From assembly GCA_045046875.1 (NCBI GenBank), contig JASFYY010000054.1:24901-88900 (forward strand): 64,000 bases of DNA, written 5' to 3'. The position numbers and the translations under genes are program-made. This document shows positions 42,521-57,810 of this stretch, one piece after another. Each line of letters begins with the position of its first letter. Position 1 is the first letter of the stretch. The DNA comes from Verrucomicrobiota bacterium. Its GTDB lineage: Bacteria > Verrucomicrobiota > Verrucomicrobiia > Verrucomicrobiales > DEV007. The notes under the pieces are model-generated. The model saw only the letters and a program-made list of their open reading frames with translations, was not told where the DNA came from and made no database searches.

Positions 42521-42609
<89 letters not shown>

Positions 42610-42670
42610 CTACACCGTAAACCTTTGATAATCAACAAAGAGTCTCACTCTGAACGAGTTATGAACCAAA

Positions 42671-44476
42671 ATGGCACACAAAAGTCATACACAAACTGGT
42701 TCAAAAGAGATGCGGAAGATTCGCAATACGACCCTCATTAAGGGGATTTATTATCTAAACATTCGCTACCCAAGCGATCTCGCGAAAGCTGGCTTGGTAG
42801 AGGGTTCCCATCACAAGAAATCACTGGGAACCCGAGACTTTCGGGAAGCGAGGAAACGAGCTGCGAACGAAGAGGCTCTGTTCTGGAGTGAGATGGAGCA
42901 TTTACGCTCTAAAGGAAGCCCCTCAGAGGCTTTGGAGGCATCTTCCCTCATTAAACCCTTCCAGAAGCTATCAAAGGCTCTACAGAGGGATTTTGTATTG
43001 AAGTGCTTCGTTGAGATGGAGCGTTCGGCAACGAAATTTCGCGATAAATATCAGTCAATGGAATCTGGTATTGAAAAAACGGATTTACTCGAAGATCAAC
43101 AGGTGGATCTATTTCACTTCCAAACGAAAGAAGAGGTTATTCGGGTGGATTGGGAGAAGGCGTTAAGGAAGACTTTGGAGAAGGAAGGTATTGCTTTTGA
43201 TGAAGAGCAAAGTTTTGACTGGGGAATCTTGGAGCTTTTTAAAAAGGCTACCATTGAGGTTCAGTGGCGAACCGTTAAAGCCTTGGATGGAGAAGATTTT
43301 GCTTTTCGTGATCGTGAGTTCAAAAATGTTAAAATTTTCAATCATTCAAACGAAAAGCCGAAGGATTCAGGACGGACTTTAGGAGATTTATGCACCGAGT
43401 TTCTGGAGGGGAAGGAGAAATCGAAGAGGAGTGCAAAAACGATGCTCAAATACACTCAAGCGGCGAAGATCGCTAGAGAAGCACTCGGAGGAAATTACAA
43501 ATTGAGTCGCCTTGAGGATGAAGGCTATGAAATTGGGAAAGGCTTGGTGGAGTTTTTGGCAAAGATTCCAACGAAAGCGCATCATAAATATAAAGGGGTT
43601 TCCTTAAAACGAGCAGCGACTCTTGAGGCAAAAAAAACAAATCCAAATTGCCTTAGCCCGAAAAGTCAGAATACTTTATTCATTGTCATAAAAGCAATAT
43701 TTACGTTAGGGCGAAACCTTCGGTGGATTAAATACAATCCGCTGGATGGGGTGAGTGAGTATTTGCCAAAAGTGGAAATTCGGCCTCGTCAGGTTTTTAC
43801 AGGCGAAGAGCTGACCACACTTTTTTCATCGAAAAAATTTCTAAGTCAGAGATTTGCGGAAGGTAGGGAGATGGGAAATAAGGGCAGGTTCTGGACAGTT
43901 CTACTTTGCCTGTTTCATGGCATGAGATTGAATGAAGCGGCATCTCTTCTGATTTCCGACGTGAAGCAACAAGAGGGTATTTGGTTTCTTGATTTGAGTG
44001 AATTTGACGAAAATGGGAATCGGAGGAAGCGGCTCAAAACAAATGCAAGCAGTCGACGAATTCCTCTGCACAAAGAAATCATCGCTATCGGTTTTTTGGA
44101 TTATGTTGATGAACAAAGAGCAAAGGCAGAAGGTGAAGAATTGTTTCCCGATTTGAAATCCAACGCGACGGGGAATAACGGAGCATCCGTTAGCCAATGG
44201 TTCACACGGACTAGAAATCAGATAATCGGCAAGCCTGCTTGTAACGGGGATAAGAGTATTCACTCATTTCGTCATGCTGTGGCTGACGCAATTCGAGAGG
44301 TCACTGAATCTGATGAAATACTTTACGCAATCTGTGGGTGGGGGTCGAACGGAGAAGCAAATTCTTCGAGGAGGTATGGTCGGGGGAGTCTTGCTCGGTT
44401 GAAAAAGGTGATTGATCAAATCCAGGTCGAGGGTTTTGACCCTACGTTTTTGAGGTCAGGTGCAGAGGAGGATTGA
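42671..44476 (+). CDS. Tyrosine integrase with DUF6538-like N-terminus
   Basis: YYLNIRYP...SLGTRD N-terminus. Catalytic set GMRLNE (R), LKT (K), HSFRH, CGW, RRY (Y). Confidence 0.93.
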   Translation: MAHKSHTQTGSKEMRKIRNTTLIKGIYYLNIRYPSDLAKAGLVEGSHHKKSLGTRDFREARKRAANEEALFWSEMEHLRSKGSPSEALEASSLIKPFQKLSKALQRDFVLKCFVEMERSATKFRDKYQSMESGIEKTDLLEDQQVDLFHFQTKEEVIRVDWEKALRKTLEKEGIAFDEEQSFDWGILELFKKATIEVQWRTVKALDGEDFAFRDREFKNVKIFNHSNEKPKDSGRTLGDLCTEFLEGKEKSKRSAKTMLKYTQAAKIAREALGGNYKLSRLEDEGYEIGKGLVEFLAKIPTKAHHKYKGVSLKRAATLEAKKTNPNCLSPKSQNTLFIVIKAIFTLGRNLRWIKYNPLDGVSEYLPKVEIRPRQVFTGEELTTLFSSKKFLSQRFAEGREMGNKGRFWTVLLCLFHGMRLNEAASLLISDVKQQEGIWFLDLSEFDENGNRRKRLKTNASSRRIPLHKEIIAIGFLDYVDEQRAKAEGEELFPDLKSNATGNNGASVSQWFTRTRNQIIGKPACNGDKSIHSFRHAVADAIREVTESDEILYAICGWGSNGEANSSRRYGRGSLARLKKVIDQIQVEGFDPTFLRSGAEED

Positions 44477-44523
44477 GAATTTGCAACCAGTTACAAAAAA
44501 ATAATCGATCATCGAGCTACTTT

Positions 44524-46440
44524 TCACTGAAACCACTCTTCTGGAATTTTGCAATTTTTGCTATTGGGGCTTGGACTTGATTCATGAATTTTTAAATGGA
44601 GAGGCATTGAAACACAATTGCCGAAGACCAAGGCTTCTCCTGGAATAGACTGTTTTATTTTATAAGTAAAATCATCAGAGAAATAGGGAAGTATAGCTTT
44701 GATATAGTTCATGTCCTTCTCATTCTGAATTCTGTGGATAATAAAATTCGCGCATTGAGAAAGCACTGTTTCAGATAGTTCAGAAGGCCTTTGGGAAGAA
44801 ACAAGTAAATAGAATGAATACTTCCTCCCTTCTCTGGCTATTTTTTCAAAAATATTCTCTTTTAGTAAATAGTCATAGTGTTTTTTTATATACCGATGCG
44901 CTTCATCTAAAACCAAGTGAACAGGATTTTTCCTTCTAGCATTGCCGATTAGTTTTTTTCTTTCATCAAAGAGTAATCGTGACGTAACACTAGTAAGCGT
45001 TTCAAGAATATCAGGACTTAATTCGCTTGTATCAATAATAACTAACTGAGATTTTTCATCATCATTACTCCAGAGTTCTTCGATATATTTTTCAACAGAA
45101 TCAATGCCATTTGATTCTCGCATAAACTCACAATCAGGGTTATCTAAAAAATAGTCCAATCGTGTTAGCATGGTTGCCGTGTATCCTCGGATTTGCCTAT
45201 TACCGCGTGCATCTTCTTCCAAAAGGATTAACTCGGCTGCAATTTTTAAAAAACGGTGGTCAAAATATTCACCATTTTTGATTTTTGAATTAATTACTTC
45301 TTGAGCGTGAGTGCTATTTACCTTCTCAAAAACAGTTTTAGTCGCTTGTTCCAGTTCAGCATTGTTTGCGCCATAAGTGATATTACATGCCTCCTGTAAT
45401 GTTCCAATATCGGCCAATAAATCAGAAGAAGCGCTTTCAATGGTCGAGTTGCTTTTAATAATACTCGTTATGCTTCCAAGAATACTTGCAGCTGTTGTAA
45501 TTCTTGCGGTATCAGTATCAGCTTGCCGTAATGTACTAAAAATCAGGTTGCAGATGCGGTATCGAAGATAGTTGATAAATTTAGTCTGCTCATCTATCCC
45601 TGAGTTTCCTATTCGGTAAAACCGATAGCTCTCCTGTAAAACCTTATCCCAAAATGGACGTTGAGTTGCATCCGTAGCCAATAGAAATGCACTCCATTCA
45701 TCCAAAGACAGCAAGAAGTGGGGTAAATAAAAAGGGCTATAGCCATCCACCTCTCCACTGATGTTCGGCTTGTAATATTTGATTAGAATATTTGAATTGG
45801 GATCATTTTCAAACGCTTGATTATATTCACCATTGACATCAAATATAAGTATTCGTGATCCTGTGGCAGAGTGATTTTCTTTCTTGTGAATTTCCTGAAT
45901 AATATGCGCAATGGTATTGGATTTGCCGCTACCTGAATTCCCTAAAATTGCTGAATGAATGTTGAAAAAACTATCTACACTCACATCTATTGGGTAGTTA
46001 ATAAGGTTTTTACTGACACCCAAATGGAATGATTGATGAACCTGATCTTCTCCTATTTGCCTTGGGTCATCATTATTGGTACGCAATATAATTCGCATAT
46101 CCATAAATGTAACAATACTTACATCACTATATAAGCTGGGAAAAATGCCTACACCTAGCGTGAAGCCTTCTTTATTGATTGTGCCAATTGGTTTAAGTAA
46201 TAGCTCCCGATTACTTTCAACATCGAAGGATAATTTTTCTTGATGCAAGTCAGTGTCAAAAATAGATACAACTTCACAGATAATAATCTCTTCGACTGCA
46301 TTGGTAACTTTAAGGTAGCTCCCGATATTGCCGAAATAATAAATATTTCCATGCAGGTTGACCGAGCTGCCTTTAATCAAAGACGATATTTTAACTTTAA
46401 GCTGATTGTAATTTATGCTGGTTATTTTCCCGATCTTCAT
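44524..46440 (-). CDS. herA: HerA-family ATPase of a Sir2-HerA anti-phage system
   Basis: N-terminal HAS-like barrel, Walker A GNSGSGKS, FDVNGEY, LDEAH, REGRKY, SQRPSELS. Confidence 0.92.
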   Translation of the reverse strand: MKIGKITSINYNQLKVKISSLIKGSSVNLHGNIYYFGNIGSYLKVTNAVEEIIICEVVSIFDTDLHQEKLSFDVESNRELLLKPIGTINKEGFTLGVGIFPSLYSDVSIVTFMDMRIILRTNNDDPRQIGEDQVHQSFHLGVSKNLINYPIDVSVDSFFNIHSAILGNSGSGKSNTIAHIIQEIHKKENHSATGSRILIFDVNGEYNQAFENDPNSNILIKYYKPNISGEVDGYSPFYLPHFLLSLDEWSAFLLATDATQRPFWDKVLQESYRFYRIGNSGIDEQTKFINYLRYRICNLIFSTLRQADTDTARITTAASILGSITSIIKSNSTIESASSDLLADIGTLQEACNITYGANNAELEQATKTVFEKVNSTHAQEVINSKIKNGEYFDHRFLKIAAELILLEEDARGNRQIRGYTATMLTRLDYFLDNPDCEFMRESNGIDSVEKYIEELWSNDDEKSQLVIIDTSELSPDILETLTSVTSRLLFDERKKLIGNARRKNPVHLVLDEAHRYIKKHYDYLLKENIFEKIAREGRKYSFYLLVSSQRPSELSETVLSQCANFIIHRIQNEKDMNYIKAILPYFSDDFTYKIKQSIPGEALVFGNCVSMPLHLKIHESSPSPNSKNCKIPEEWFQ

Positions 46441-47627
46441 GAAATAGAATCACCTTTCAAATATTTAATTGAAGATATAAAGGTGTCCAACAAAGTAGTG
46501 TCTATATTCTCATCTGCATTGGGTAGTAATTCCTCGACAATATATTCAAAGTAGTGAATTTTCTTATCTTCCTCATCAGTGCCGAATATGCGATAGATCC
46601 TACTATCCTGAATTTTAGCGAGAGGGCATTCGTTGTATTCACCAAAAATCACAACCGATATTGATGTGTTTGATGCTAAAGCTTGATAGATAATGTTGTT
46701 AAGATGCTCGTCACTAAAACTGTATCCAATAATAAATACCACAGAGTTAGGTTGTGATAATTTAGTTTGAAACTCCCTAATAAGATCAGCGTAGGGTGTT
46801 CCCAAGCTATGTGCCTGCTTTAAAGGTGTTGGAAAAATTAAAACATGGCTTTCTTCTCCTTTAGGATCGCCACCATTAACGGAAACTTCATGGATGTTGA
46901 ATAATGAATTCCCCTCTTGCTCTATCCAGCTAATAGAACCATGCAGCTTGTATAAATATACCATGTTTTCCAATGGCTCGAATTTTTCCAAGTTCGCATC
47001 TATTTTTTTTGAGAATGTGTAATGAAACCTTGCTGGGTTAAAAACTCTTTCAAGCCCCCCGCCAAATCCATTGTTGAAATTTATATTGATTGAATCGAGA
47101 GCTTTTTCATTTAAAAGATCATTGTTGGTTGTAAATACATTGATCCGAGACAGGTCTTTATTTCTTAGTGCTGTTTTTTGATAAAACAGTTTATATAGAT
47201 TTAGGTTTTTCTCAGCCTCTCCACTTGTGAGGTCAATATTAATTTCGGAATACATTGAATCTTCGATATGCTCTATAAGATCCTCAACATTTGAAGTTTC
47301 TCTATCATCGGCACCTGTGATTCCTTGCAAAAAATGTTGTTTAGCATAGAGAATCGTTAGTTTTTCCTCCAAATTATCACTATCGATTTTCTCGTATAGA
47401 TCTTTTATCTCATCATCCAAGGATGCATCAATGCTTTCCGCTATTTTTTTCTGCATGTCTTTCATGCTAGGAATGGCATAAGAACTTGCGCCTGCGCCAA
47501 GAAAAAAGCTAACATTTTTAATATTGGATAATTCAGCTATTTTTTGTTTGATGCTTTTAAGGCTATCTTCACCAGCAATATTTTCACCACCTTGGTAAAA
47601 AAACATTTTCTGTTCATCACTACTCAT
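46437..47627 (-). CDS. SIR2-like NADase of a Sir2-HerA anti-phage system
   Basis: FFLGAGAS, FTTNND, LYKLHGS, IGYSFSDEH. 4-nt overlap with herA. Confidence 0.92.
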   Translation of the reverse strand: MSSDEQKMFFYQGGENIAGEDSLKSIKQKIAELSNIKNVSFFLGAGASSYAIPSMKDMQKKIAESIDASLDDEIKDLYEKIDSDNLEEKLTILYAKQHFLQGITGADDRETSNVEDLIEHIEDSMYSEINIDLTSGEAEKNLNLYKLFYQKTALRNKDLSRINVFTTNNDLLNEKALDSININFNNGFGGGLERVFNPARFHYTFSKKIDANLEKFEPLENMVYLYKLHGSISWIEQEGNSLFNIHEVSVNGGDPKGEESHVLIFPTPLKQAHSLGTPYADLIREFQTKLSQPNSVVFIIGYSFSDEHLNNIIYQALASNTSISVVIFGEYNECPLAKIQDSRIYRIFGTDEEDKKIHYFEYIVEELLPNADENIDTTLLDTFISSIKYLKGDSIS

Positions 47628-47713
47628 TGAATTACCTTCCTATTAAATTGCAGCACTACTTCCAACAGTGCTTCTGATGTCTGTCCATCAGCATCTCGGC
47701 AGTTGGTTTGCAC

Positions 47714-47840
47714 ATATTACGCTAAAGAGCTGTCACTGGCTGCTGGGGGCACGATCCGATTTCGGACTTTAGGTTGCGAGATTTCAATACGCGTCAACTC
47801 GCAGCGGACAGTAGCCTGTTAGTAGCCTCGTCTTGTTCGG
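47714..47840 (-). other. attC-like integron cassette site
   Basis: On the minus strand, CCGAACAAGACGAG starts 3 nt after the upstream stop codon. Imperfect inverted arms over ~127 bp end in a degenerate core CGTAATAT. CCGAAC complements GTTCGG at the cassette start (48644-48639). Confidence 0.65.
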
Positions 47841-47843
47841 AGC

Positions 47844-48044
47844 TTAGCGTCCACAGCAAGGGCAGCCCCCAGAGTTCATCGGGCCGAGATCGACACCAGC
47901 GCGTTTCGCGAATGATTCTTCGAGCACTTTTTGATCGCTAAGATTTGCATCGTAGTAAGCTTGCATTTCCTTCAAGGCTTGAACCTGCTCTACAATTGAG
48001 AGGTTCGTGAAGCCCACATACACTTTTGCTTGTTTTTCGTTCAT
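47844..48044 (-). CDS. Small protein ending in CPCCGR, partner of the upstream CxxC protein
   Basis: 66-aa ORF, 11 nt after the upstream stop, within the same cassette. Confidence 0.7.
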   Translation of the reverse strand: MNEKQAKVYVGFTNLSIVEQVQALKEMQAYYDANLSDQKVLEESFAKRAGVDLGPMNSGGCPCCGR

Positions 48045-48055
48045 AGTTTTTCTTG

Positions 48056-48631
48056 TTAGAAGTTACCGCAGGTGTTGCAGCTTGTTGGTTCCAAGGTCGT
48101 GGGCATTTTGCCGCATGTCGCACACTTTCTCTGAAATTTCCGAAGCGCGGCTCTCATTCCAAGAGCCTTCTCTTTGTCTGTAATGTCTAGTTTTTCGTCG
48201 AGATTAGCTCGCATATCTCCTTCAGTGTCCGCGGCTCTTAACTCGACCTCATACGCGGGACGTTCCAAAGTTGTTGTTGTTGCCAATCGATGTAAATCCT
48301 CGGCAAGGCGGTAATTCGCTGATTTCGATTCGAGGTAGTAAGCAAAATTGTCCTCCCACTTCGATACAAGTGACCATATGGATAGGATTAGTTGTATGAT
48401 CCCCAGAATTCCAGCGATTGTGATTGTTAGACCGACATAGGCCGACTCTGCACCTATGGTTGCGATGATGGCACCTAATGCGGCTGGGACTGCAATTCCA
48501 AGAAATGCCAACGCGCGGAGGCACCACCTCTGCTTGCGTGTTCTGCGCTCGAAAATATAGGCGGTTCCGAATGCGCGGAATGCATTATCCGAACAGCGGC
48601 GTCGATATTCATCTGGGATGGTGTCTTCCAT
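48056..48631 (-). CDS. Mobilome CxxCx(11)CxxC protein (two-TM, SLATT-like)
   Basis: Two TM helices and C-terminal CATC-x11-CNTC. ATG lies 7 nt after the GTTCGG core. Confidence 0.85.
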   Translation of the reverse strand: MEDTIPDEYRRRCSDNAFRAFGTAYIFERRTRKQRWCLRALAFLGIAVPAALGAIIATIGAESAYVGLTITIAGILGIIQLILSIWSLVSKWEDNFAYYLESKSANYRLAEDLHRLATTTTLERPAYEVELRAADTEGDMRANLDEKLDITDKEKALGMRAALRKFQRKCATCGKMPTTLEPTSCNTCGNF

Positions 48632-48638
48632 TTTATTA

Positions 48639-48779
48639 CCGAACAATTTAGTTGAGGAACTCCTACTCTGAATTCGGATTTGTCGAGTTAAGTGGCCTGA
48701 GTAGCAGACTCAACTTCAAGTCGCCTTTGAAGCTCGCGGTGTCACGCTCGATTCTACAAAACTTAATATTCAGGTCAAG
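48639..48779 (-). promoter_or_regulatory. Promoter + attI-like cassette platform, left-facing copy
   Basis: TTGACC-N16-TAGAAT, then AATCGAGCGTGACACCGCGAGCTTCA and TCCGAATTCAGAGTAGGAGT, ending AACTAAATTG/TTCGG. Homologous to 53207-53340. Confidence 0.65.
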
Positions 48780-48890
48780 TTCATTATTGATGCAGGAGCA
48801 TTCTCAATCCCCCACATTTTTTAAAAATTGTGAAGCAAATGAAATGAACGCAAATTCTCAAGCGGCGACCTTGCATTACATATGCCCGAA

Positions 48891-49018
48891 TATGTATTCA
48901 AAAAAACCTCCCTCTGAAAATCGCCCACAGGCCTCATAAGTTTGAAGGAAAAAAACGATCTAGGTGTATTCAAAAAACCATTTGATTATTTGAACACGAT
49001 CGCTAGGTTTTGAATATG
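48891..49018. promoter_or_regulatory. res-like repeats upstream of the serine recombinase
   Basis: TGTATTCAAAAAA at 48893 and 48965, with inverted partners TTTGAACAC (48989) and TTTTGAATA (49008). Confidence 0.6.
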
Positions 49019-49651
49019 CAAGCCAAGCAAATCCCAGTTGCAATTCTAGTTCGTGTCTCAACTTCAAAACAGGAAACTGACCGACAGGTTTTTGAACTTG
49101 AAGCCTACGCAAAGACAAAAGGGTATGAGATTGTCAAAATCTGTAGGGAAGAAATCTCAGGCGCGGCTTCTGAAGATCTGAGAATTGGCCTTTATGAAGT
49201 TGAAGAACTGGCTAGACAGGGAGCAATTCAAAAGGTTTTGGTTCACGAAGTCTCAAGGCTTGCCCGTAAAAACAGTGTGGCTCATGCATTTATTGAGATG
49301 CTTGAAGAGCTTGGAGTGTCCCTTTATTGGCATCAACAAAGTATCGAAACACTTCTACCAAACGGGAAAAGGAATCCTGCCGCCTCTATCATGTTTGCTT
49401 TGCTCGCAGAAATGGCGAGATCTGAGAGAGAGACTCTATCAACGAGAATCAAATCGGGCTTGGAAGAAGCTCGAAGGAAGGGCCGAACTCTTGGAAGGCC
49501 TCAAGGTTCAAAACTCTCTGAAAAAACATTCATCACAAAGCATAGAGATATTTGTCGTCATTTGCGGGGAGGGCAATCGATTAGGAATACTGCAAAGATC
49601 ACAGGGAAAGGCATATCCACGGTTCAACGTGTGAAAGCAGTAATCGCCTGA
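49016..49651 (+). CDS. Small serine recombinase (resolvase/invertase family)
   Basis: VRVSTSKQ (catalytic Ser), EEISGA, EVSRLAR, LGRP.G, C-terminal HTH. Confidence 0.93.
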   Translation: MQAKQIPVAILVRVSTSKQETDRQVFELEAYAKTKGYEIVKICREEISGAASEDLRIGLYEVEELARQGAIQKVLVHEVSRLARKNSVAHAFIEMLEELGVSLYWHQQSIETLLPNGKRNPAASIMFALLAEMARSERETLSTRIKSGLEEARRKGRTLGRPQGSKLSEKTFITKHRDICRHLRGGQSIRNTAKITGKGISTVQRVKAVIA

Positions 49652-49736
49652 TGCATAATCGAACCCATTTTTTTAAAAGGGGGAAACGAAGGAAGGCGGA
49701 CATCGACGCCTATTAGGAGGGAGAGTTTTTTGTAAC

Positions 49737-49865
49737 CAGTTGCAAATTCAGTCGGTTTCTCCACTTCCAGACAAGGCAAATCGTAGGGTATCTGAATTTG
49801 AAGCTCATGCCGAGTCAGAAGGGTATGAGATTGTCGAAGTCTATGCAGAGCAAATTTCGGGAGGA
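49737..49865 (+). pseudogene. Decayed 5' fragment of a paralogous serine recombinase
   Basis: Translates to PVANSVGFSTSRQ, then after a frameshift VSEFEAHAESEGYEIVEVYAEQISG. The intact gene reads PVAILVRVSTSKQ...VFELEAYAKTKGYEIVKICREEISG. Confidence 0.8.
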
Positions 49866-50134
49866 ATCGAATAATTGATAGGCTCTTGCAGGAAGGAAGG
49901 AACAAGCTTTTGGGAGGGGAAATGAAATGGGGTGTCCGGTAACGGCCAGTATTGGAGAAACTCATGACCGTTGCCGTAAAATTACGAGAAAGATTTTCTA
50001 TCCAAAATGCCACTACCTTAACGAAAATGGGATTTTACAGCTCAAGGGCTGAATGCCGCCCTATCTTAGATTTTTACGTCATCCAAATCTAGCTCAATAC
50101 AGGGGTAATTACGAAGAGGGGAATTTTCAAAACG

Positions 50135-50392
50135 CTAGCGATCTTTTGAATTTTCAAATGATTTCATGAGTAGTTCGGCCTCTTTCGCTGGATCAGCTCC
50201 TAAGGCAAGGATGAGCCAATAAAACTCGATCACGTCCAAACGCCGATCACCCAATTCAATTTTGGCGATTAAGCTGTGATTCCAACCAACAGCTTTCGCC
50301 AAGTCACGTTGAGTCATTCCAGCCTTTTCCCTTAAAAGGCGTAAATGGCTTTTAAATATTTTTGATTCAGCTGAATGTAACGACTTACCCAC
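50135..50392 (-). CDS. XRE/Cro-CI helix-turn-helix regulator
   Basis: LRLLREKAGMTQRDLA...IAKIELGDRRLDVIEF. Confidence 0.9.
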   Translation of the reverse strand: MGKSLHSAESKIFKSHLRLLREKAGMTQRDLAKAVGWNHSLIAKIELGDRRLDVIEFYWLILALGADPAKEAELLMKSFENSKDR

Positions 50393-50450
50393 GCTTCGAT
50401 ATTCGGATCAAAACTGTTTGCTTCAAAAATCGAAGCAACTATATTCAAGC

Positions 50451-51497
50451 ATGGATGAATTAGAAAAAAACTCTTCAACGGAACCGAACGAAAAACAGTC
50501 AGCGCCTTTTAACGCATCAGGTGAAAAAAGAGTGGACATTGGAATTCTGCTAGCACTTTTTCTTGGATATTTTGGAGCACATCATTTCTACCTTGGGCGG
50601 TGGAAAATGGGGATAGCCTACCTAATATTGGGTTTACTCACATTTCTTTCAATCCCTCTCGCCTTGATCGATTGCTTCAGAATGAAGGGGTTGGTAGCAC
50701 GGGCGAATAACACTCAAGATTCAAGCGTGGCGACCCCGCCCTTGGCAAATGGGACATCACCAAAACAATCAACCTTACTCGGAATGCCTGCTAAATATGT
50801 TCTCGGCTTTGCAGGGGGACTTGGTGGACTGATTGTAATTATGATTGGATTCAGCACAGTTTCCACGATGAAAAACCTGAAAGAAAACCAGAAAGAGTTT
50901 GAGCTCAATCGTGATGAAATTGTAGCTGTTGCTCAAAAGGCACTTGATGAAGGGGATTTCAATAAAGCTAAATCCATAGGTCTTAAACATGAATTGTCGC
51001 ATGATCCTGAGCTTGGAAAAATACTCACTATATCGAACGCTAAATTAGCGGAAATCAAACAGAGACGCGAGGCGGCTCTAGCAGGACAACGAAAGGTTGA
51101 AAGCGAAAAGGCAAATGCTCAACGGAAAGCTGAAATCGCAAAGGCAAATGCCGAACGGGTTTCAAACATCACTTGGAGGGAATTTGATTCGATTTATAAC
51201 CTACAAAGTGACGCCACCGATTTACAAAAAGAATCAGAATGGAAAAAATACAAAGGGAAAACTATTCAATGGTCGGGGGAGGTGTTTGATATTGGCGAAT
51301 CATTTGGGAGCTTGACGCTCAGCATCAAGATGAATTCGGACACCTTCACATTCGATCTTTTGGTATTTCTTCGTAAAGAAGCAAAGGATGATGCTATTTC
51401 TCTTCGTAAAGGTGATCCTGTGACATTCCAAGCTGATTTGGATAGCTGGGGAGGATTGCTACCAACTAACCTGAAAAATGGTATTATTGTGAAATAA
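50451..51497 (+). CDS. TM2-domain membrane protein with coiled coil and C-terminal OB-fold-like domain
   Basis: LLALFLGYFGAHHFYLG TM2 motif, further TM, coiled coil, YKGKTIQWSGEV...LRKGDPVTF. Confidence 0.75.
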   Translation: MDELEKNSSTEPNEKQSAPFNASGEKRVDIGILLALFLGYFGAHHFYLGRWKMGIAYLILGLLTFLSIPLALIDCFRMKGLVARANNTQDSSVATPPLANGTSPKQSTLLGMPAKYVLGFAGGLGGLIVIMIGFSTVSTMKNLKENQKEFELNRDEIVAVAQKALDEGDFNKAKSIGLKHELSHDPELGKILTISNAKLAEIKQRREAALAGQRKVESEKANAQRKAEIAKANAERVSNITWREFDSIYNLQSDATDLQKESEWKKYKGKTIQWSGEVFDIGESFGSLTLSIKMNSDTFTFDLLVFLRKEAKDDAISLRKGDPVTFQADLDSWGGLLPTNLKNGIIVK

Positions 51498-51712
51498 CCA
51501 TCATAGATGGGCTGAGATACCACAGGTTATACGGTGTTGCTTGATACGTCGTGGCTTTAGATCATTCAGCATGAATTAAAGAGTAATGTTCTTGAAAAGA
51601 AGAGGGTTAAATGGTAAGCTTATCAAGCTAGGTATTTGCATCCTAGTTGCAAATTTTGTTTTTTATCTCCTTATACATAGTAGGGGAGAAGGGATACGTG
51701 AAGACAATATCA

Positions 51713-53014
51713 CTAATCATGAGGGAATACTTCATTTAGGCATGTAAGATAGTGAAGAGGCAAAATAGAAGCGCCTTGAACTCTACTCCCTATTAGCACG
51801 CCACGACTTTTCAATCTTCTCACCAAGTTCGTCATCTTATGATTAGTTGGGGTGATACCCCGATTACTAATGAGAAGATTTATAACTGTCTTTGCTTGCT
51901 GTGTTGATTCAGAGGCATCCAATATTAATCCGAGGAGAGTATGAAGATCTGAATTGGAGTTCTCGATTTCTCTGATCTCCTCAAATATTGTTTCCATTTT
52001 CCCCGTTTCTTCGCCGCATAGGAATTGACACAGCTGAGGGAGGAATCGAAATCTTAGTTCGGTAGATTTATGTCCGTCCTCAATGGAGTAATGTTGAAGA
52101 TTGAATTTTAATTCAAGTCTGACTCTTTTTTCCGTCTTTGCATAAACGCAGATTTCGAGCCCTTGATTGAATTTCGTTCGGATGGAAGGACAATTTACTT
52201 CCCTGTCACGAATGATAGTGGGATAGAAGGAAAGTGAATTTGAGCGTCCTATACGGGCAATTATTGGTTCGATTGCTCTGACTCTTTCAACGGCGTCTTC
52301 GTCTGCCACTTCCCAATAGACTTCGACATAGGAGACATTGACATCAGGACTGAATGATCCCTCCATTGAATCGCCGGTATTTCTATTGGCTCTCTGAAAT
52401 TCCGAGGTAAGAGTGGTTACAATGCCTCCCCAATATTGTTCGACGAGGCTATTCCATTTCTCCGGTTGAGAATAGGTTTCTTCAGCTACACCAGTCAGAA
52501 TATTATCATTGCCATCAAGGGCTGGAAATGGCTCTTTGCGGCGGGCAACCGCATTCGTCCAGATTTTGTATTGGCCAGTTCCACTAGGATGCTGATGGTG
52601 GGCGAACCGAGTTGGGTTGATTGATAACTCCGCCCTAATTTCGACTATCTTAAATTCGGAATTGGGAGGCTGGTGAATCTTTGTGATAATTAAAGATCCC
52701 GAAAATAGTGGAAAGCCCGGCAATCTTCCATATTTCCTATGATCCTTTGTCCGTATGGTGAGTGTAGTTCGATTTCCGGTTCCTCGACGGTTATTGAAGA
52801 TCCAGCCAAATTGGGCGTAAATGCCATCTTCACCTAGAGGCGTCACATCAATGTGATCGACAGGATTTCGGCGGGACATCGGCTGAAGAGCGGCTAGGAA
52901 CACCTCTAAGTCATTCTTATCACGATATTGAAATATCCAAACGCCCAAAGTGACTTCAATCTTGTCGAGTTTGGCATTTGCCGCAGTAGGGGATTCATCG
53001 AAACCTGATAGCAT
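51713..53014 (-). CDS. Hypothetical protein, possible replication initiator
   Basis: 433-aa ORF. ELSINPTRF and VYAKTEKRVRLELKF resemble the NP and YxK...RxE motifs of Rep_trans/phage gpII-type initiators. Possible C-terminal winged helix. Confidence 0.4.
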   Translation of the reverse strand: MLSGFDESPTAANAKLDKIEVTLGVWIFQYRDKNDLEVFLAALQPMSRRNPVDHIDVTPLGEDGIYAQFGWIFNNRRGTGNRTTLTIRTKDHRKYGRLPGFPLFSGSLIITKIHQPPNSEFKIVEIRAELSINPTRFAHHQHPSGTGQYKIWTNAVARRKEPFPALDGNDNILTGVAEETYSQPEKWNSLVEQYWGGIVTTLTSEFQRANRNTGDSMEGSFSPDVNVSYVEVYWEVADEDAVERVRAIEPIIARIGRSNSLSFYPTIIRDREVNCPSIRTKFNQGLEICVYAKTEKRVRLELKFNLQHYSIEDGHKSTELRFRFLPQLCQFLCGEETGKMETIFEEIREIENSNSDLHTLLGLILDASESTQQAKTVINLLISNRGITPTNHKMTNLVRRLKSRGVLIGSRVQGASILPLHYLTCLNEVFPHD

Positions 53015-53206
53015 TCGTGACTAAGGCATCAATACGCCTAAATTTCGAGACGAAAAACCTGGAATACAATGATGTTTTGAGTGTTTGGATTTCGCACTTC
53101 TGGATTTCTTGTGAGAGCAGGTTGGAGCCTGACTTTTCACGGAAGGCTTGGATGGGAATTGAATCTCATTCTCTCGTAGCAATAACTTTCATTCTTGGAA
53201 TTAGGC

Positions 53207-53340
53207 TTGACCCATTTGTCGAAATTAGTAAAATCGAGCGTAACCCCGCGAGCTTCAGTGAACCTGCAATAACAGCAGGTCACTGAGCTCGGGATTTCCG
53301 AAATCAGGGTAGGGGTGATATAATAAAACTATTTGTGCCC
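53207..53340 (+). promoter_or_regulatory. Promoter + attI-like cassette platform, right-facing copy
   Basis: TTGACC-N16-TAAAAT, AATCGAGCGTAACCCCGCGAGCTTCA (24/26 identical to the left copy), TCCGAAATCAGGGTAGGGGT (17/20). Directly precedes the first cassette gene. Confidence 0.65.
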
Positions 53341-53347
53341 AAAAAAA

Positions 53348-54031
53348 ATGGCGAAGAAGCGCATCGCAATTCCCAAGCAAACAGAGAAGCGAGCCTTTCA
53401 GGAAGTCGGCTCGGCTTGCGGTTTTTGCCGAGAGAGCGAGATCGCTTCTCTCCAAGTTCATCATATTGACGAAGATCCCTCAAATAACGATTTGGGGAAT
53501 CTGTTGGTCGTTTGTAGCAACTGTCATGGGAAGATATCGGAAGGAGTCATATCTCAATCCGATGTGATGCTCCGGAAGCGTATGGTGCAGGCTGGCGCTC
53601 ATACGGAATCATCGAAGCCCACCAGAGATTCAGTCACTGTGAATGTGGCAGACTCCAGCTTCCAAGGAGACGTGGCGCACACGATAAACAACATTTCCAC
53701 ACCGAAAACTCCGAGGATTCAGCATCCTGAGGGTTCGCTAGGGGCGGATCTAGAGCGGAAGGGATATATCGATTATCTGATCACAAGATATTTTGATTTT
53801 AGAAAGGCTGACCGATCATACGGTCGAAAGACGCCATTCTCGCACGCTGTAATCCACAAGAATATTCAGAAGGAATTCGGGTTTAAGACGTTCTTCATGC
53901 CCGCGGATCGTTTTCTGGAACTTGTGATCTACTTGCAGAACTGTATTGATCGAACCGCGTTGGGGAGGAACAATCGAGCGAAAGGAAAGCGCCGATACCA
54001 TTCGTTCGAGGAACACGCCAAACGGGCATAA
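53348..54031 (+). CDS. HNH endonuclease with unknown C-terminal domain (cassette gene)
   Basis: CGFC...LQVHHID...NN...NLLVVCSNCH. Confidence 0.85.
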   Translation: MAKKRIAIPKQTEKRAFQEVGSACGFCRESEIASLQVHHIDEDPSNNDLGNLLVVCSNCHGKISEGVISQSDVMLRKRMVQAGAHTESSKPTRDSVTVNVADSSFQGDVAHTINNISTPKTPRIQHPEGSLGADLERKGYIDYLITRYFDFRKADRSYGRKTPFSHAVIHKNIQKEFGFKTFFMPADRFLELVIYLQNCIDRTALGRNNRAKGKRRYHSFEEHAKRA

Positions 54032-54161
54032 GACGTCGCAGATCAACCGACTACCCTCTGCGAATTGAAGTTTAAATGAAAGCTATTAACCTAAACCTGA
54101 AATCAAAGCTAGCCGCCTGGTAGCAGGTGACTGGACTTTGACGCCCAACTATAATCGCCCC
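54024..54161 (+). other. Degenerate attC-like site
   Basis: GTCGCAGATCAACCGACTACC...GGTAGCAGGTGACTGGACT, homologous to the site at 55435-55560. Overlaps the HNH stop codon. Confidence 0.6.
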
Positions 54162-54166
54162 TCGCC

Positions 54167-54649
54167 ATGCGAATGCACAATCATAAATGGACACTAGTAG
54201 CCGCCACAGCGGCGGTTCTGATTTGCTACAGTGCGCCATATGCAGTTTATCGGTTCTTTTACTCGGGGGCCGTTCTTGAGTATGTTGGAGGGCATGTGAT
54301 TCGACCATCATTTGTCAGCAATGACGCTCCCGCTACCACTCCGGACTTCACATTCGACGATTACTCCCGTTCGTTTGGTAGTTCCTTCCTAACAGGGAGC
54401 TTTGTATCTCAGAGTCTGGTGACTCGACTTGCCTCTTACACTGGATTGGACATTGCCGGCCCGCTGAATGACTTATTCTACCCTCTAGCTCGAATAGATC
54501 ACTTGTTTACCGGCCGCTACTGTAGGTTCAAGAATGAGGGTTGGGTGCCAATCTTCTCCAGTCATCCGTCCGTCGGCTCGGGCGTTCTAATTGATCTTTC
54601 CGCCATTGAGCAGATACAATTTGATGGGTTTATTAACACCAGCCCATGA
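54167..54649 (+). CDS. Hypothetical membrane-anchored protein (cassette gene)
   Basis: 160-aa ORF that fills the space between two attC-like sites. N-terminal hydrophobic helix. Confidence 0.6.
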   Translation: MRMHNHKWTLVAATAAVLICYSAPYAVYRFFYSGAVLEYVGGHVIRPSFVSNDAPATTPDFTFDDYSRSFGSSFLTGSFVSQSLVTRLASYTGLDIAGPLNDLFYPLARIDHLFTGRYCRFKNEGWVPIFSSHPSVGSGVLIDLSAIEQIQFDGFINTSP

Positions 54650-54670
54650 TAACGACCACAGTCAAAACGG

Positions 54671-54799
54671 GGCGAACAAGGCGCGGATGGCAACCCCCAC
54701 TAGCCCTTCTGTTTTCGATGCTTCAACTTCATTCAACCTCAACCTCGCGATCAACGCTGCCCCCCCGCTAGTGGGGTTGCCATCGCTTAATCGTTCGCC
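54671..54799 (+). other. attC site (best-preserved copy)
   Basis: GGCGAAC...GTTCGCC perfect terminal inverted cores. Inner arms GATGGCAACCCCCACTAGC / GCTAGTGGGGTTGCCATC with extrahelical bases. 129 bp. Confidence 0.85.
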
Positions 54800-55429
54800 T
54801 CAAGAATAGAGCTTCAACGCAGCACGGACTTTTGCGTCCTCGATTGATTTGTATCTCCATTTCCCCCACTCACCGTTGATATTTAGAGTGTGGTGATTTT
54901 CCTGCTTACAGATAAATACTCGCGTGTCTCCATACTTATAGAGAACGCCTTTGCTGGTATGCCTCCAACGGGGAGATTTCTGGAAGGTTCTTCTACGCAG
55001 AGCTCTCTTTCGTAGTTCGTGGGCATCTGAATTCCCTAGACGATCCGCACAGTCATAACCGACGATTATCTCACCCCATTGAGGATGCCACAACACATTA
55101 TGCCACTTCATGGATGCGCCGCATAGTTCGCAAGATGTGTCACCGCTAGATTCCTCATTTTCCCAATCTGAGTGAATCAGCGTCCAGCCTTGATTAGGAG
55201 GTATGATTCCATGCTCACGGGCATGACATCCGGAGCACAGCACTTGGCAAAACTCGATCTGATATTCCCAAGCTTTAAGGTTTGGATCGTAATGAGGGTG
55301 GTGAATTTGAAGCGTCACTCCCGTTGATCGTTTGCAGACCTCGCACTGATGCCCCGCCTTCGATAGGCATTTTTCCCGATAATCTAACCACTCTTTTTTC
55401 ATTCCCGTGTAGTTCAGAGTAACATACAA
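54800..55429 (-). CDS. HNH-type nuclease with second Zn-binding module (inverted cassette gene)
   Basis: CEVC...LQIHH...VLCSGCH, then CELCG...H...DC. Fills the space between two attC sites in antisense orientation. Confidence 0.75.
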   Translation of the reverse strand: MYVTLNYTGMKKEWLDYREKCLSKAGHQCEVCKRSTGVTLQIHHPHYDPNLKAWEYQIEFCQVLCSGCHAREHGIIPPNQGWTLIHSDWENEESSGDTSCELCGASMKWHNVLWHPQWGEIIVGYDCADRLGNSDAHELRKRALRRRTFQKSPRWRHTSKGVLYKYGDTRVFICKQENHHTLNINGEWGKWRYKSIEDAKVRAALKLYS

Positions 55430-55434
55430 CTAAA

Positions 55435-55560
55435 GTCGAACAAGAAGTCGCGGATCAACGCACTACCCGCCGCGAGGAAAAAATCCAATGAACGTTCAAG
55501 CCTTTAACCTGATTTCGGAGCGCGCTCTCGGCAGCGCGTGACTGGACTCAAACGTCTGCC
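55435..55560 (+). other. attC-like site
   Basis: GTCGAACAAGAAGTCGCGGATCAACGCACTACC...GGCAGCGCGTGACTGGACTCAAACGTCTGCC. Followed by a short ATG stub (MSYDLAALEI-stop). Confidence 0.7.
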
Positions 55561-55867
55561 TAGAAAATGAGTTACGACCTCGCAGCCCTTGAAATATAGG
55601 GTGTATTGCTGCGCAGTCCGCAATTACACCCCTAGAACAATAAGCCGCTGGGTACAGCCGCATGAAATCGCCTTTTAAATCGACAACCCACAGGGACTTG
55701 AACTACACAGGGCTGTGTTTCAGTTAAGAGGTAAACCACCCCAACGATTAACTTGATTCTAGAGACTTAAGATCTAGCCTATCTTACTCATACACAAAAC
55801 TAATACACAGAACGCCACCAAGGATCTCATAACTCATTGATTATCAACGGCAGTTTTGACGGAAACC

Positions 55868-56029
55868 CGAATCCCACCCTCTCCGCCATTATAATTTTGA
55901 ACCAAAAAAGCGCAGCACGGTTCAAAATTATAATATCGAGAGTTGGATGAGAACTTTGGTTCGAGCCGTAGCGAGTCCGCGAGCGGAGACAGGCGGAATA
56001 AAATGAAGCCAATCCCACCCTCTCCGCCA
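55868..56029 (+). repeat. attR plus tRNA-linked mini-repeat with a second tRNA 3'-end copy
   Basis: tRNA 3' end at 55868-55888 and again at 56011-56029 (19 bp). Between them is a perfect 16-bp inverted repeat (55888-55903 / 55919-55934). Confidence 0.9.
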
Positions 56030-56236: not shown

Positions 56237-56440
56237 AAAGATTGGGGACAAGGGGGTTTGCGAGCTTCAGTTTTTGATTATTGTTGCCTGACCCCATTTG
56301 GTATGACCCCATTTGGTATATCATTGAGCACCGTTGGTGCAAAAGAGATGAAAGCCAATTGTCCTGTAAGGACAAAGTGTGATAGCCCGGCGCGAAGCGC
56401 TGGGGTTAAATCGGCTTTATTACCAGCCCTAAAAGGGCGG
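56237..56440. repeat. REP/MITE-like debris
   Basis: TGACCCCATTTGGTA tandem x2 (56289-56318), hairpins CCCGGCGCGAAGCGCTGGG and GCCCTAAAAGGGC, and a 17-mer shared with 13822-13838. Confidence 0.5.
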
Positions 56441-56508: not shown

Positions 56509-57810
56509 TTAGATTCGCACGAAGATTTTTTGTTTGTATAAATACCAGCAGATCAGCCAGAAGAAGAGGCCGACGGCGGAGGCTTGTATGAAGGGGGCGT
56601 TCATTTCTCCGAGTGCGTTGAAAGTTTCCGGGCCGAGGTGTTTTTTCAACAGGGAGGTGGTCCAGGGTTTCATTAACATGGCCATGAAATACATCAGCAG
56701 GGAATTCATTCCGACTACGATGAGGGGGAAGGCGCCCCAACGCCATTTGAGGACATCGACGATGCCGTAGAGTGTGGCGAGGATGAGGCAGCACCAGCCG
56801 GTGGAAAAGAGCACCCAGGATGGTGTCCAGATACGTTTGACCATGGGGATGAAACCGGAGAGATGGAGGTAGTGTCCGATGATGAGTCCGATGATTCCTC
56901 CGAGAACCAGGGTGAAAAATTTGCGCTTGTGGCTGTGCCTGGAGCGTAATAGTTCACCGCACATCAGGCCAAAGATCATGGTGGCCAGTGAGGGGATGAA
57001 GTTGAGGGTTTGGTAACCTCCGGCGCTGAAGGTGAATGGCTCCTTGCGCGGGAATTTGTTGATCAGGTAGAGGTCGATGTGATGGCCGACGTTGGCGTTT
57101 TTGTGCCAGGCAGGGGCGATGTCTTTGAGATTTTCTTGTGACCATTCGGCGCTCACTCCGACTTCGGGAGCGCCTTTTTCGATGTCGAGCCCGGTATTGG
57201 GTTCGTAGCTGTAGAATCCCCAGGTGCCGACTAATATAAGGATGACGCCGAGAGCTTGGGCTTTCCATGGGAAACCCCAGAATATAAACAAAAAGCTGTA
57301 ACCGAGCCCGATTTGGCTGAGCACGTTCATGAACCACCAGTTGGTTTGGTCCTTGCCGTTGGAGCTGAGCAATACCCCTAATAATATCAGCACGAGGGAT
57401 CGCCACAGGGCATGTCCGAACATGCGAAACCAGGAGTGGCCCAAGGAGGCGCGCTTGGTATAGGAGTAGGCCATCGAGACGCCGACCATGAACATGAAGG
57501 AGGGTTGGATGAGATCCCAGTAGCCGAAACCTGTCCATTCGACATGATGGAAGTTGTGGAGAATGTTTTGCCACAAATTGGAATCCGGATTTTCTGCCAG
57601 ATGATTTTTGGCGGTGCCGTAGAGCCCGAATCCGCCAAAGGCCAGGGAGATCATGATCAGGCCGCGATAGGCGTCCAGAGAGTGCAGGCGAGGGTGTTTT
57701 TCCTTCAGCCGCTTTTTCTTGGCGGGTATTTTTTTTCCAGGTGAGGTGGGGGCTGGAGGGGTTGCCTGCTTTTCAGCAGACTCCGAGGGGGTAATCTTGG
57801 TCGTGGCCAT
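56509..57810 (-). CDS. Membrane acyltransferase (HGSNAT-like / DUF5009)
   Basis: RLHSLDAYRG, HVEWTG..WDLIQPSFMFMVGVS, NVLSQIGL, KRIWTPSW, VGMNS. Confidence 0.88.
   Translation of the reverse strand: MATTKITPSESAEKQATPPAPTSPGKKIPAKKKRLKEKHPRLHSLDAYRGLIMISLAFGGFGLYGTAKNHLAENPDSNLWQNILHNFHHVEWTGFGYWDLIQPSFMFMVGVSMAYSYTKRASLGHSWFRMFGHALWRSLVLILLGVLLSSNGKDQTNWWFMNVLSQIGLGYSFLFIFWGFPWKAQALGVILILVGTWGFYSYEPNTGLDIEKGAPEVGVSAEWSQENLKDIAPAWHKNANVGHHIDLYLINKFPRKEPFTFSAGGYQTLNFIPSLATMIFGLMCGELLRSRHSHKRKFFTLVLGGIIGLIIGHYLHLSGFIPMVKRIWTPSWVLFSTGWCCLILATLYGIVDVLKWRWGAFPLIVVGMNSLLMYFMAMLMKPWTTSLLKKHLGPETFNALGEMNAPFIQASAVGLFFWLICWYLYKQKIFVRI

Follow-up and report, generated by a model that had tools for sequence, protein, structure and literature searches.

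The window analysed here (the whole 64-kb stretch of DNA, positions 24901-88900 of contig C54 of the source genome G000, a Verrucomicrobiota bacterium) carries a low-GC island with two homologous modules of about 130 nucleotides (nt), each made up of a promoter-like box and an attI-like end at which a gene cassette begins. We hold with fair confidence that these modules are stand-alone integron platforms, i.e., a predicted promoter joined to a predicted attI in an island without the integrase gene intI, and that they were loaded by an integrase (IntI) encoded elsewhere. The parts of this reading differ in strength: judged from sequence comparison, it is very likely that the modules are genuine attI-like promoter platforms lacking intI, and rather likely that an integrase loaded them in trans at some time. 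Current service of the two island platforms (also called pads below) is doubtful because of a mutation in the right core, the decay of most attC sites, stops in the matching intI and the truncation of the other intI. The island pads are probably partly frozen, the left one having an intact core and the right one looking frozen.

The two modules in the window

The two platforms are laid out as follows.

48644..48779, minus strand: left platform, in which a promoter-like box (-35/-10) and the conserved blocks lead to an AT-rich simple site whose G/TT crossover, between 48644 and 48643, is intact (model match E 5.6e-29, as a training sequence of the model)
53206..53331, plus strand: right platform of the same layout, with a mutated core triplet (A for G at 53331) and an imperfect inverted repeat at 53249-53291

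The original prediction, made from the letters of this stretch, had described two homologous modules sharing a promoter box and two blocks, and alignment, promoter scan and pattern search all bore this out: the 26-nt block is identical at 24 of 26 positions (48728-48753 versus 53232-53257) and the 20-nt block at 17 of 20 (~48659-48678 versus ~53297-53316). The promoter-like boxes (48778-48751 on the minus strand, 53207-53234 on the plus strand) are oriented toward the cassettes in the manner of a cassette promoter (Pc), and in a sigma-70 scan each gave 10 of 12 matches with a 16-nt spacer. Both were among the four best of 26 sites between 44 and 56.5 kb; shuffled sequence gives as many sites on average (mean 23.9), and the promoter match alone is therefore weak. 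The predicted end about 130 nt past the -35 box also held, the distance from box to crossover being 135 nt on the left and 125 nt on the right, in both cases at a cassette boundary. With 63% identity over the alignment, the two modules form the longest inverted repeat between 42 and 57 kb (52 nt, 75%) and are linked by genome-wide blastn at E 1.5e-4. A pattern derived from four copies matched the window twice, exactly at both modules, versus 0.01 matches expected, the pattern being built partly from both window copies and hence not fully independent; G000 has no copies other than these two. An absence of integron integrase from the island had also been claimed, and tblastn indeed found no IntI-like sequence in the window, nor was there a match to the IntI model TIGR02249 on contig C54.

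Contigs assembled from four DNA sequencing runs of one study (word shares 0.06-0.11) cover both module regions, with variants. In runs X3 and X1, the left module (48787/48797) is joined to position 56511, the end of the island-flanking gene, on single contigs from related strains, as though those strains had a chromosomal pad there; with single contigs at 85% likeness this is a weak lead.

A module family in front of variable cassettes

When 401 genomes of the order were searched by blastn, real matches were confined to two copies in G010, a genome of the same genus labelled Verrucomicrobiota (three of seven weak matches were read and all lacked the module). A model built from the four copies retrieved three further copies in G010 (E 3e-10, 1e-3, and 1e-3) and a partial copy in G157, and a second model retrieved a sixth copy in G010 (E 2e-3). 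At the family level the model search gave matches in 4 of 134 genomes, namely G000, G010, G157 with its partial copy, and G275, where the match was rejected as lying inside a coding region. Matches were obtained in 2 of 151 genomes at the class level, where one in G498 was rejected as lying at a gene start, and in 2 of 151 at the order level. A pattern scan of GTDB genomes returned 20 loci, two of them real and 18 rejected for want of the downstream blocks, and all five matches in each of the viral and metagenome scans were chance matches. Neither the sampled genomes nor the GTDB, viral and metagenome scans, in which the exact patterns are insensitive, yielded a family member from outside the genus.

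The six copies in G010 lie on six contigs, and the two IntI matches of this genome sit on two other contigs; no IntI was found by tblastn in the fetched flanks of the module loci. Five of the six follow the end of an ordinary chromosomal open reading frame (ORF), have an intact G/TT core and are succeeded by ORFs closed by attC-like repeats, as judged by eye; the sixth is cut off after its hairpin and runs into attC-bearing ORFs. From their translations we take the upstream ORFs to be sulfatase-, DUF1501-, and LeuRS-like (leucyl-tRNA synthetase). The -35 and -10 boxes are kept in the G010 copies with spacers of 16-18 nt. At all four orthologous positions that could be located in G000 the module was missing, and it is therefore not the native promoter of the flanking genes. 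The partial module in G157 (contig C102, L064 / L055) keeps its inverted repeat through paired changes and has no clear -10 box.

Behind the seven copies that reach the core position the first ORFs are all different, the comparison being one between separate loci and not between alleles of a single locus. The check originally proposed, whether module matches precede variable cassettes, thus came out in favor, and the claim that the modules are stand-alone attI-like platforms with a promoter-like box is supported, since homologs precede different cassettes at a fixed G/TT boundary. The crossover lies at the start of the first cassette in the left window copy and in five of the six G010 copies, the right window copy being mutated. 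Two shared cassettes locate this boundary from outside the family: the first cassette behind the copy on G010 contig C23 is 91% identical over 494 nt to a cassette behind a host-type attI on G000 contig C103, and the first cassette on G010 contig C58 is 79% identical to one on G000 contig C76 that follows an attC-type end, both with the same boundary. Because the crossover is here fixed independently of the module alignment, these cassettes are the strongest evidence by which the 3' end of the module is identified as the putative cassette insertion point.

A different account would make the module a regulatory leader, i.e., a promoter with a hairpin RNA or an operator, whose 3' end served as an attG-type secondary site for incoming cassettes. 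IntI is described to insert cassettes at attG sites in the genome, and these can be expressed from promoters close by (10.1101/2022.09.11.507474, available text); moreover, an imperfect inverted repeat is kept in most module copies, with changes on both sides in the G157 copy (by eye). Against such a leader, no full copy before a constant gene was found, the orthologous loci lack the module, and the module end matches the simple site of host attI; moreover, neither window module has an Rfam match at E up to 5, and the left one folds no better than shuffles (z -0.2 to -0.8). We regard the leader as very improbable. Even less credence is given to the module being a promoter cassette without a gene, its hairpin a degenerate form of attC. 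Promoter cassettes free of ORFs are known to occur (cited in the available text of 10.1101/2025.06.18.660453) and the hairpin of the right module (DNA fold z -5.6) has two unpaired bases ~6 nt apart like the arms of attC, but the distance from arm to crossover is ~40 nt rather than 6 (arm end 53291, core 53331), the hairpin is not preceded by a conserved R'' box and lacks the R''-L''-L'-R' spacing of attC (5 and 6 nt), and the module always comes first and never within an array in all eight full or near-full copies.

Host integrons and the proposed loading of the modules

The original prediction had called for an intI elsewhere in the genome and a comparison of its attI with the modules. The first part held, with TIGR02249 matches over the cut-off on contigs C117 and C27, and on no other contig of G000; as to the second, only the terminal ~20 nt is shared, clearly so in some of the module copies. 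The IntI proteins of the genus fall into three clades, one of which has a tail-to-head platform with the promoter-like box and attI downstream of intI, seen at five loci here; an attI downstream of intI has also been reported in Archaea (PMC9668308, available text). Like the modules, this platform has an AT-rich simple site and G/TT that lie ~135 nt past a promoter-like box, with an inverted repeat separating the two, and its terminal box is shared by some module copies; in contrast to it, the modules have no intI and no detectable homology upstream of the terminal ~20 nt. The module profile gave no significant match to the intI flanks of 10 loci in the genus, and the profile of host-type attI matched only the terminal ~20 nt of the module (E 0.001, one of eight copies). 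A matrix of the terminal box was clear in two of seven module copies (G010 C23 and C132) and weak in both window copies. In G073, three copies of the host-type attI end in the same 19 nt as the C23 copy. The inverted repeat of the host-type pads differs from that of the modules; in host-type attI (L047, L048, L001, and L051) it lies just before the core and its arms change together between species.

Host-type Pc-attI pads occur at 17 places in six genomes of the genus, 12 without and five with intI in the upstream flank (up to 1.5 kb examined), where the counts in five sister genomes may miss more diverged pads. G000 has six, one beside intI and five without (C103, C122, C125, and two on C128); the pad on C125 and that on contig C282 of the sister species G137 are the same locus in two species. 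Three of the six G000 pads, all of them intI-less, stop at a contig end on the core triplet, which makes three of the five such ends among 326, and for the two contig-end pads that were tested no more than the terminal 13-14 nt recur at any other place. We infer that these stops are assembly forks caused by mixed first cassettes, which would mean that solo pads have varied recently; polymorphism between strains that is old, or gaps in coverage, may be other causes. Another pad-like end, at a contig end on the minus strand of G000 C142, resembles the upstream region known from the third clade of IntI (L045), and no neighboring intI was seen.

The mechanism we propose would start with IntI binding the terminal ~20-nt simple site, which some module copies share with the attI of the tail-to-head intI. 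Recombination of a folded attC with this attI by an IntI made elsewhere would insert the cassette at G/TT, and the promoter ~120-135 nt upstream would transcribe the first cassette. The island would have taken up two pad copies as cargo. The borrowing of a host IntI in trans, as originally claimed, is well supported for solo pads across the genus and has possibly lapsed for the two island pads.

Several observations weigh against loading in trans. Full module copies are known from only two genomes, no intI was found adjoining any copy of the family, which thus has no known cognate integrase, and the G157 copy keeps the inverted repeat without a clear core or attC. The evidence from contig ends concerns host-type solo pads only, and the two island modules assemble straight through. 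On the matrix of the host-type terminal box the window copies are weak (genome fractions 4e-4 and 1.5e-3 versus 4e-7 for the best copy), the core triplet of the right module is changed from G to A at 53331, and three of the four attC sites of the island do not fold canonically and are considered decayed, the intact one being 54671-54799. In G000, the intI with the matching attI (L001, contig C117) has a TAG stop in the integrase domain and another upstream, and the second intI runs off the end of its contig and is only half assembled. L001 is a tail-to-head intI with a long N-terminal extension, and its intact relatives have ~470 amino acids (aa).

These points bear on a further alternative, which we consider unlikely though clearly less so than the leader or the promoter cassette: that the modules are inert and are what remains of complete integrons belonging to a fourth class, with cassettes loaded before intI was deleted and nothing acting in trans now. 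Since Pc and attI of the tail-to-head type lie wholly downstream of intI, its deletion leaves a complete pad, and the solo pad on G000 C103 keeps ~30-50 nt that resemble the 3' tail of intI (by eye), which points to host-type pads having arisen from full integrons, either through loss or through incomplete copying. In the island the arrays have decayed, the matching intI has stops, and loss of intI is a listed origin of clusters of attC sites lacking integrases (CALINs) (PMC4889954, available text). However, relics of this kind would need six independent insertions and clean intI losses in G010, in a family without intI beside any copy. Five of six copies keep both promoter boxes and the core at 56-68% mutual identity, which suggests selection, and host-type solo pads end at assembly forks.

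Going beyond platforms loaded in trans, we tentatively consider that the genus has a distributed integron, although this would be a bolder reading with somewhat unfavorable prospects. One or two integrases would serve many satellite promoter-attI pads behind housekeeping genes, and the module would be an integrase-less pad family that spreads as a unit, also onto islands, and converges on the terminal box of host attI to borrow the integrase. If so, many cassettes could hold an expressed first position at once, and such pads would break the layout of one attI per integrase, and expression would no longer be confined to the cassettes at the head of a single array. CALINs are abundant, and the literature, in its available text, treats them as relics or as donors without Pc; conserved multi-copy promoter-attI pads would turn some of them into active sites of acceptance and expression. 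An island bearing pads could export host cassettes without encoding IntI. The aligned copies supply defined sites, and intact candidate integrases exist, e.g., the 470-aa IntI of G010.

A CALIN headed by its own attI is already known, and the variant described here is a multi-copy, intI-less family of promoter-attI pads. The known case is a CALIN in the Shewanella prophage M16-3 (Qi et al., 2023, PMC9892861), in which likewise a cassette array carried by a mobile element lacks intI and is headed by an attI. As far as the available text of that paper describes it, M16-3 has one copy, of the same attI type as the complete integron in the same prophage, whereas here two copies lie on an island without intI, the modules form a sequence family that differs from host attI in all but the last ~20 nt, a promoter-like box belongs to each of the two, and G010 has six chromosomal copies. 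With CALINs and single attC sites lacking integrases (SALINs) the arrays share attC cassettes without a neighboring intI (Cury 2016, PMC4889954; Loot, 10.1101/2022.09.11.507474). In the available text of those papers CALINs and SALINs are donors or relics, cut off from Pc and with attI not searchable, whereas the modules keep a Pc-like box and an attI-like end and so could serve as sites of acceptance and expression. Cassette insertion away from intI and beside a promoter is also known from attG sites (10.1101/2022.09.11.507474, available text); these are scattered genomic sites, in contrast to a repeated homologous unit of ~130 nt. Origins of CALINs and their mobilization in trans are discussed in the available parts of PMC4889954, PMC9668308, and 10.1101/2025.06.18.660453, and marine attI sites are described as diverse and mostly without direct repeats (PMC3146285, available text). 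Fragments of attI can flank mobile cassettes (PMC12901181, available text), by analogy a possible route of pad spread. No description of multi-copy promoter-attI satellites was found in the full-text literature, which largely lacked subscription journals and did not cover supplements.

Island setting and cassettes

The remaining features of the island and of the arrays behind the two modules are listed below.

42521..42605, plus strand: tRNA-Ser, the island insertion site, with its 3' end repeated at 55870 (attR) and 56011
42671..44476, plus strand: island tyrosine recombinase (DUF6538 and phage integrase domains), not IntI
44524..47627, minus strand: SIR2-HerA anti-phage gene pair (PADLOC; SIR2 E 1e-131, HerA E 2e-214), 3' of the left cassette
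47714..48643, minus strand: single two-ORF left cassette, closed by a decayed attC (~47841-47714), its start and R''-like end complementary by eye
47844..48044, minus strand: 66-aa ORF, second ORF of the left cassette, without family match in domain and family searches
48056..48646, minus strand: mobilome CxxCx(11)CxxC protein, first ORF of the left cassette (TIGR04402 E 3.6e-58, over the cut-off; weak SLATT match E 0.017)
49010..49651, plus strand: serine resolvase/invertase of the island core (PF00239 E 8e-29)
50135..53014, no strand assigned: helix-turn-helix (HTH) gene, TM2-domain gene and 433-aa ORF of the island core, from domain searches
53332..54147, plus strand: right cassette 1, HNH protein (53333-54031; weak PF13392/PF01844 matches) and decayed attC (~54023-54147)
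54148..54799, plus strand: right cassette 2, 160-aa ORF and the only intact attC (54671-54799; attC finder score 20)
54800..55560, plus strand: right cassette 3, inverted HNH-like ORF (54800-55429, minus strand) and decayed attC (55435-55560; fold z 0.91)

An empty site in the sister species G137 keeps the second tRNA repeat only (the 56011 relic), which delimits the island to ~42609-55888. Each module was expected to head an attC array; the right one heads three cassettes, and the left one a single two-ORF cassette that ends in one decayed attC. By definition the right array, with one intact and two decayed attC sites, is a CALIN and the left one, with one attC, is SALIN-like; the attC detectors were home-made rather than IntegronFinder, and the finder is strict and misses many sites. 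The intact attC (54671-54799) is canonical and its bottom strand folds with z -3.45, a value reached by none of 200 shuffles. The site at 54023 (fold z -1.0) resembles attC sites in the arrays of the host (70-72% identity); the site at 55435 is 70-73% identical to the one at 54023 and to sites in sister genomes. The left attC (fold z 0.29) has 80% identity over 45 nt to a stretch in G137. No attC was seen after SIR2-HerA, and the left promoter might read through into this gene pair, because in the scan no terminator on the minus strand separates the two.

Relatives of the island backbone combine integrase, resolvase and the 433-aa ORF in G197, and HTH, TM2 and the 433-aa ORF in G380. None of the six regions examined has a module, and there was at most one weak attC candidate in them, none convincing; the pads are thus cargo acquired within the genus. 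The claim that the island, as a designed unit, samples cassettes through two outward pads is not supported, since its backbone relatives lack modules and the other copies are chromosomal, after ordinary genes; the outward-facing pair is a single case and, on this comparison, looks accidental.

A 24-nt inverted repeat (92%; 44477-44500 and 49726-49749) encloses SIR2-HerA, the left cassette with its pad, and the resolvase; a broken copy of the 5' end of the resolvase gene (~49730-49880) overlaps with the right arm of the repeat. The segment in between is possibly invertible, which could account for the divergent pad layout. The 433-aa orphan ORF (51713-53014) has relatives in islands of five other genomes of the family. 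Its matches to Phage_CRI clusters (0.80-0.81) are under the 0.9 bar of the tool, and as a lead it may be a replication protein; if it acted in rolling-circle replication, a weak lead, it would, speculatively, supply single-stranded DNA favoring attC folding. Beyond the island, a match to the Acido-Lenti-1 RNA (56360-56404; score 37.5 versus a gathering score of 37) lies inside a repeated intergenic element.

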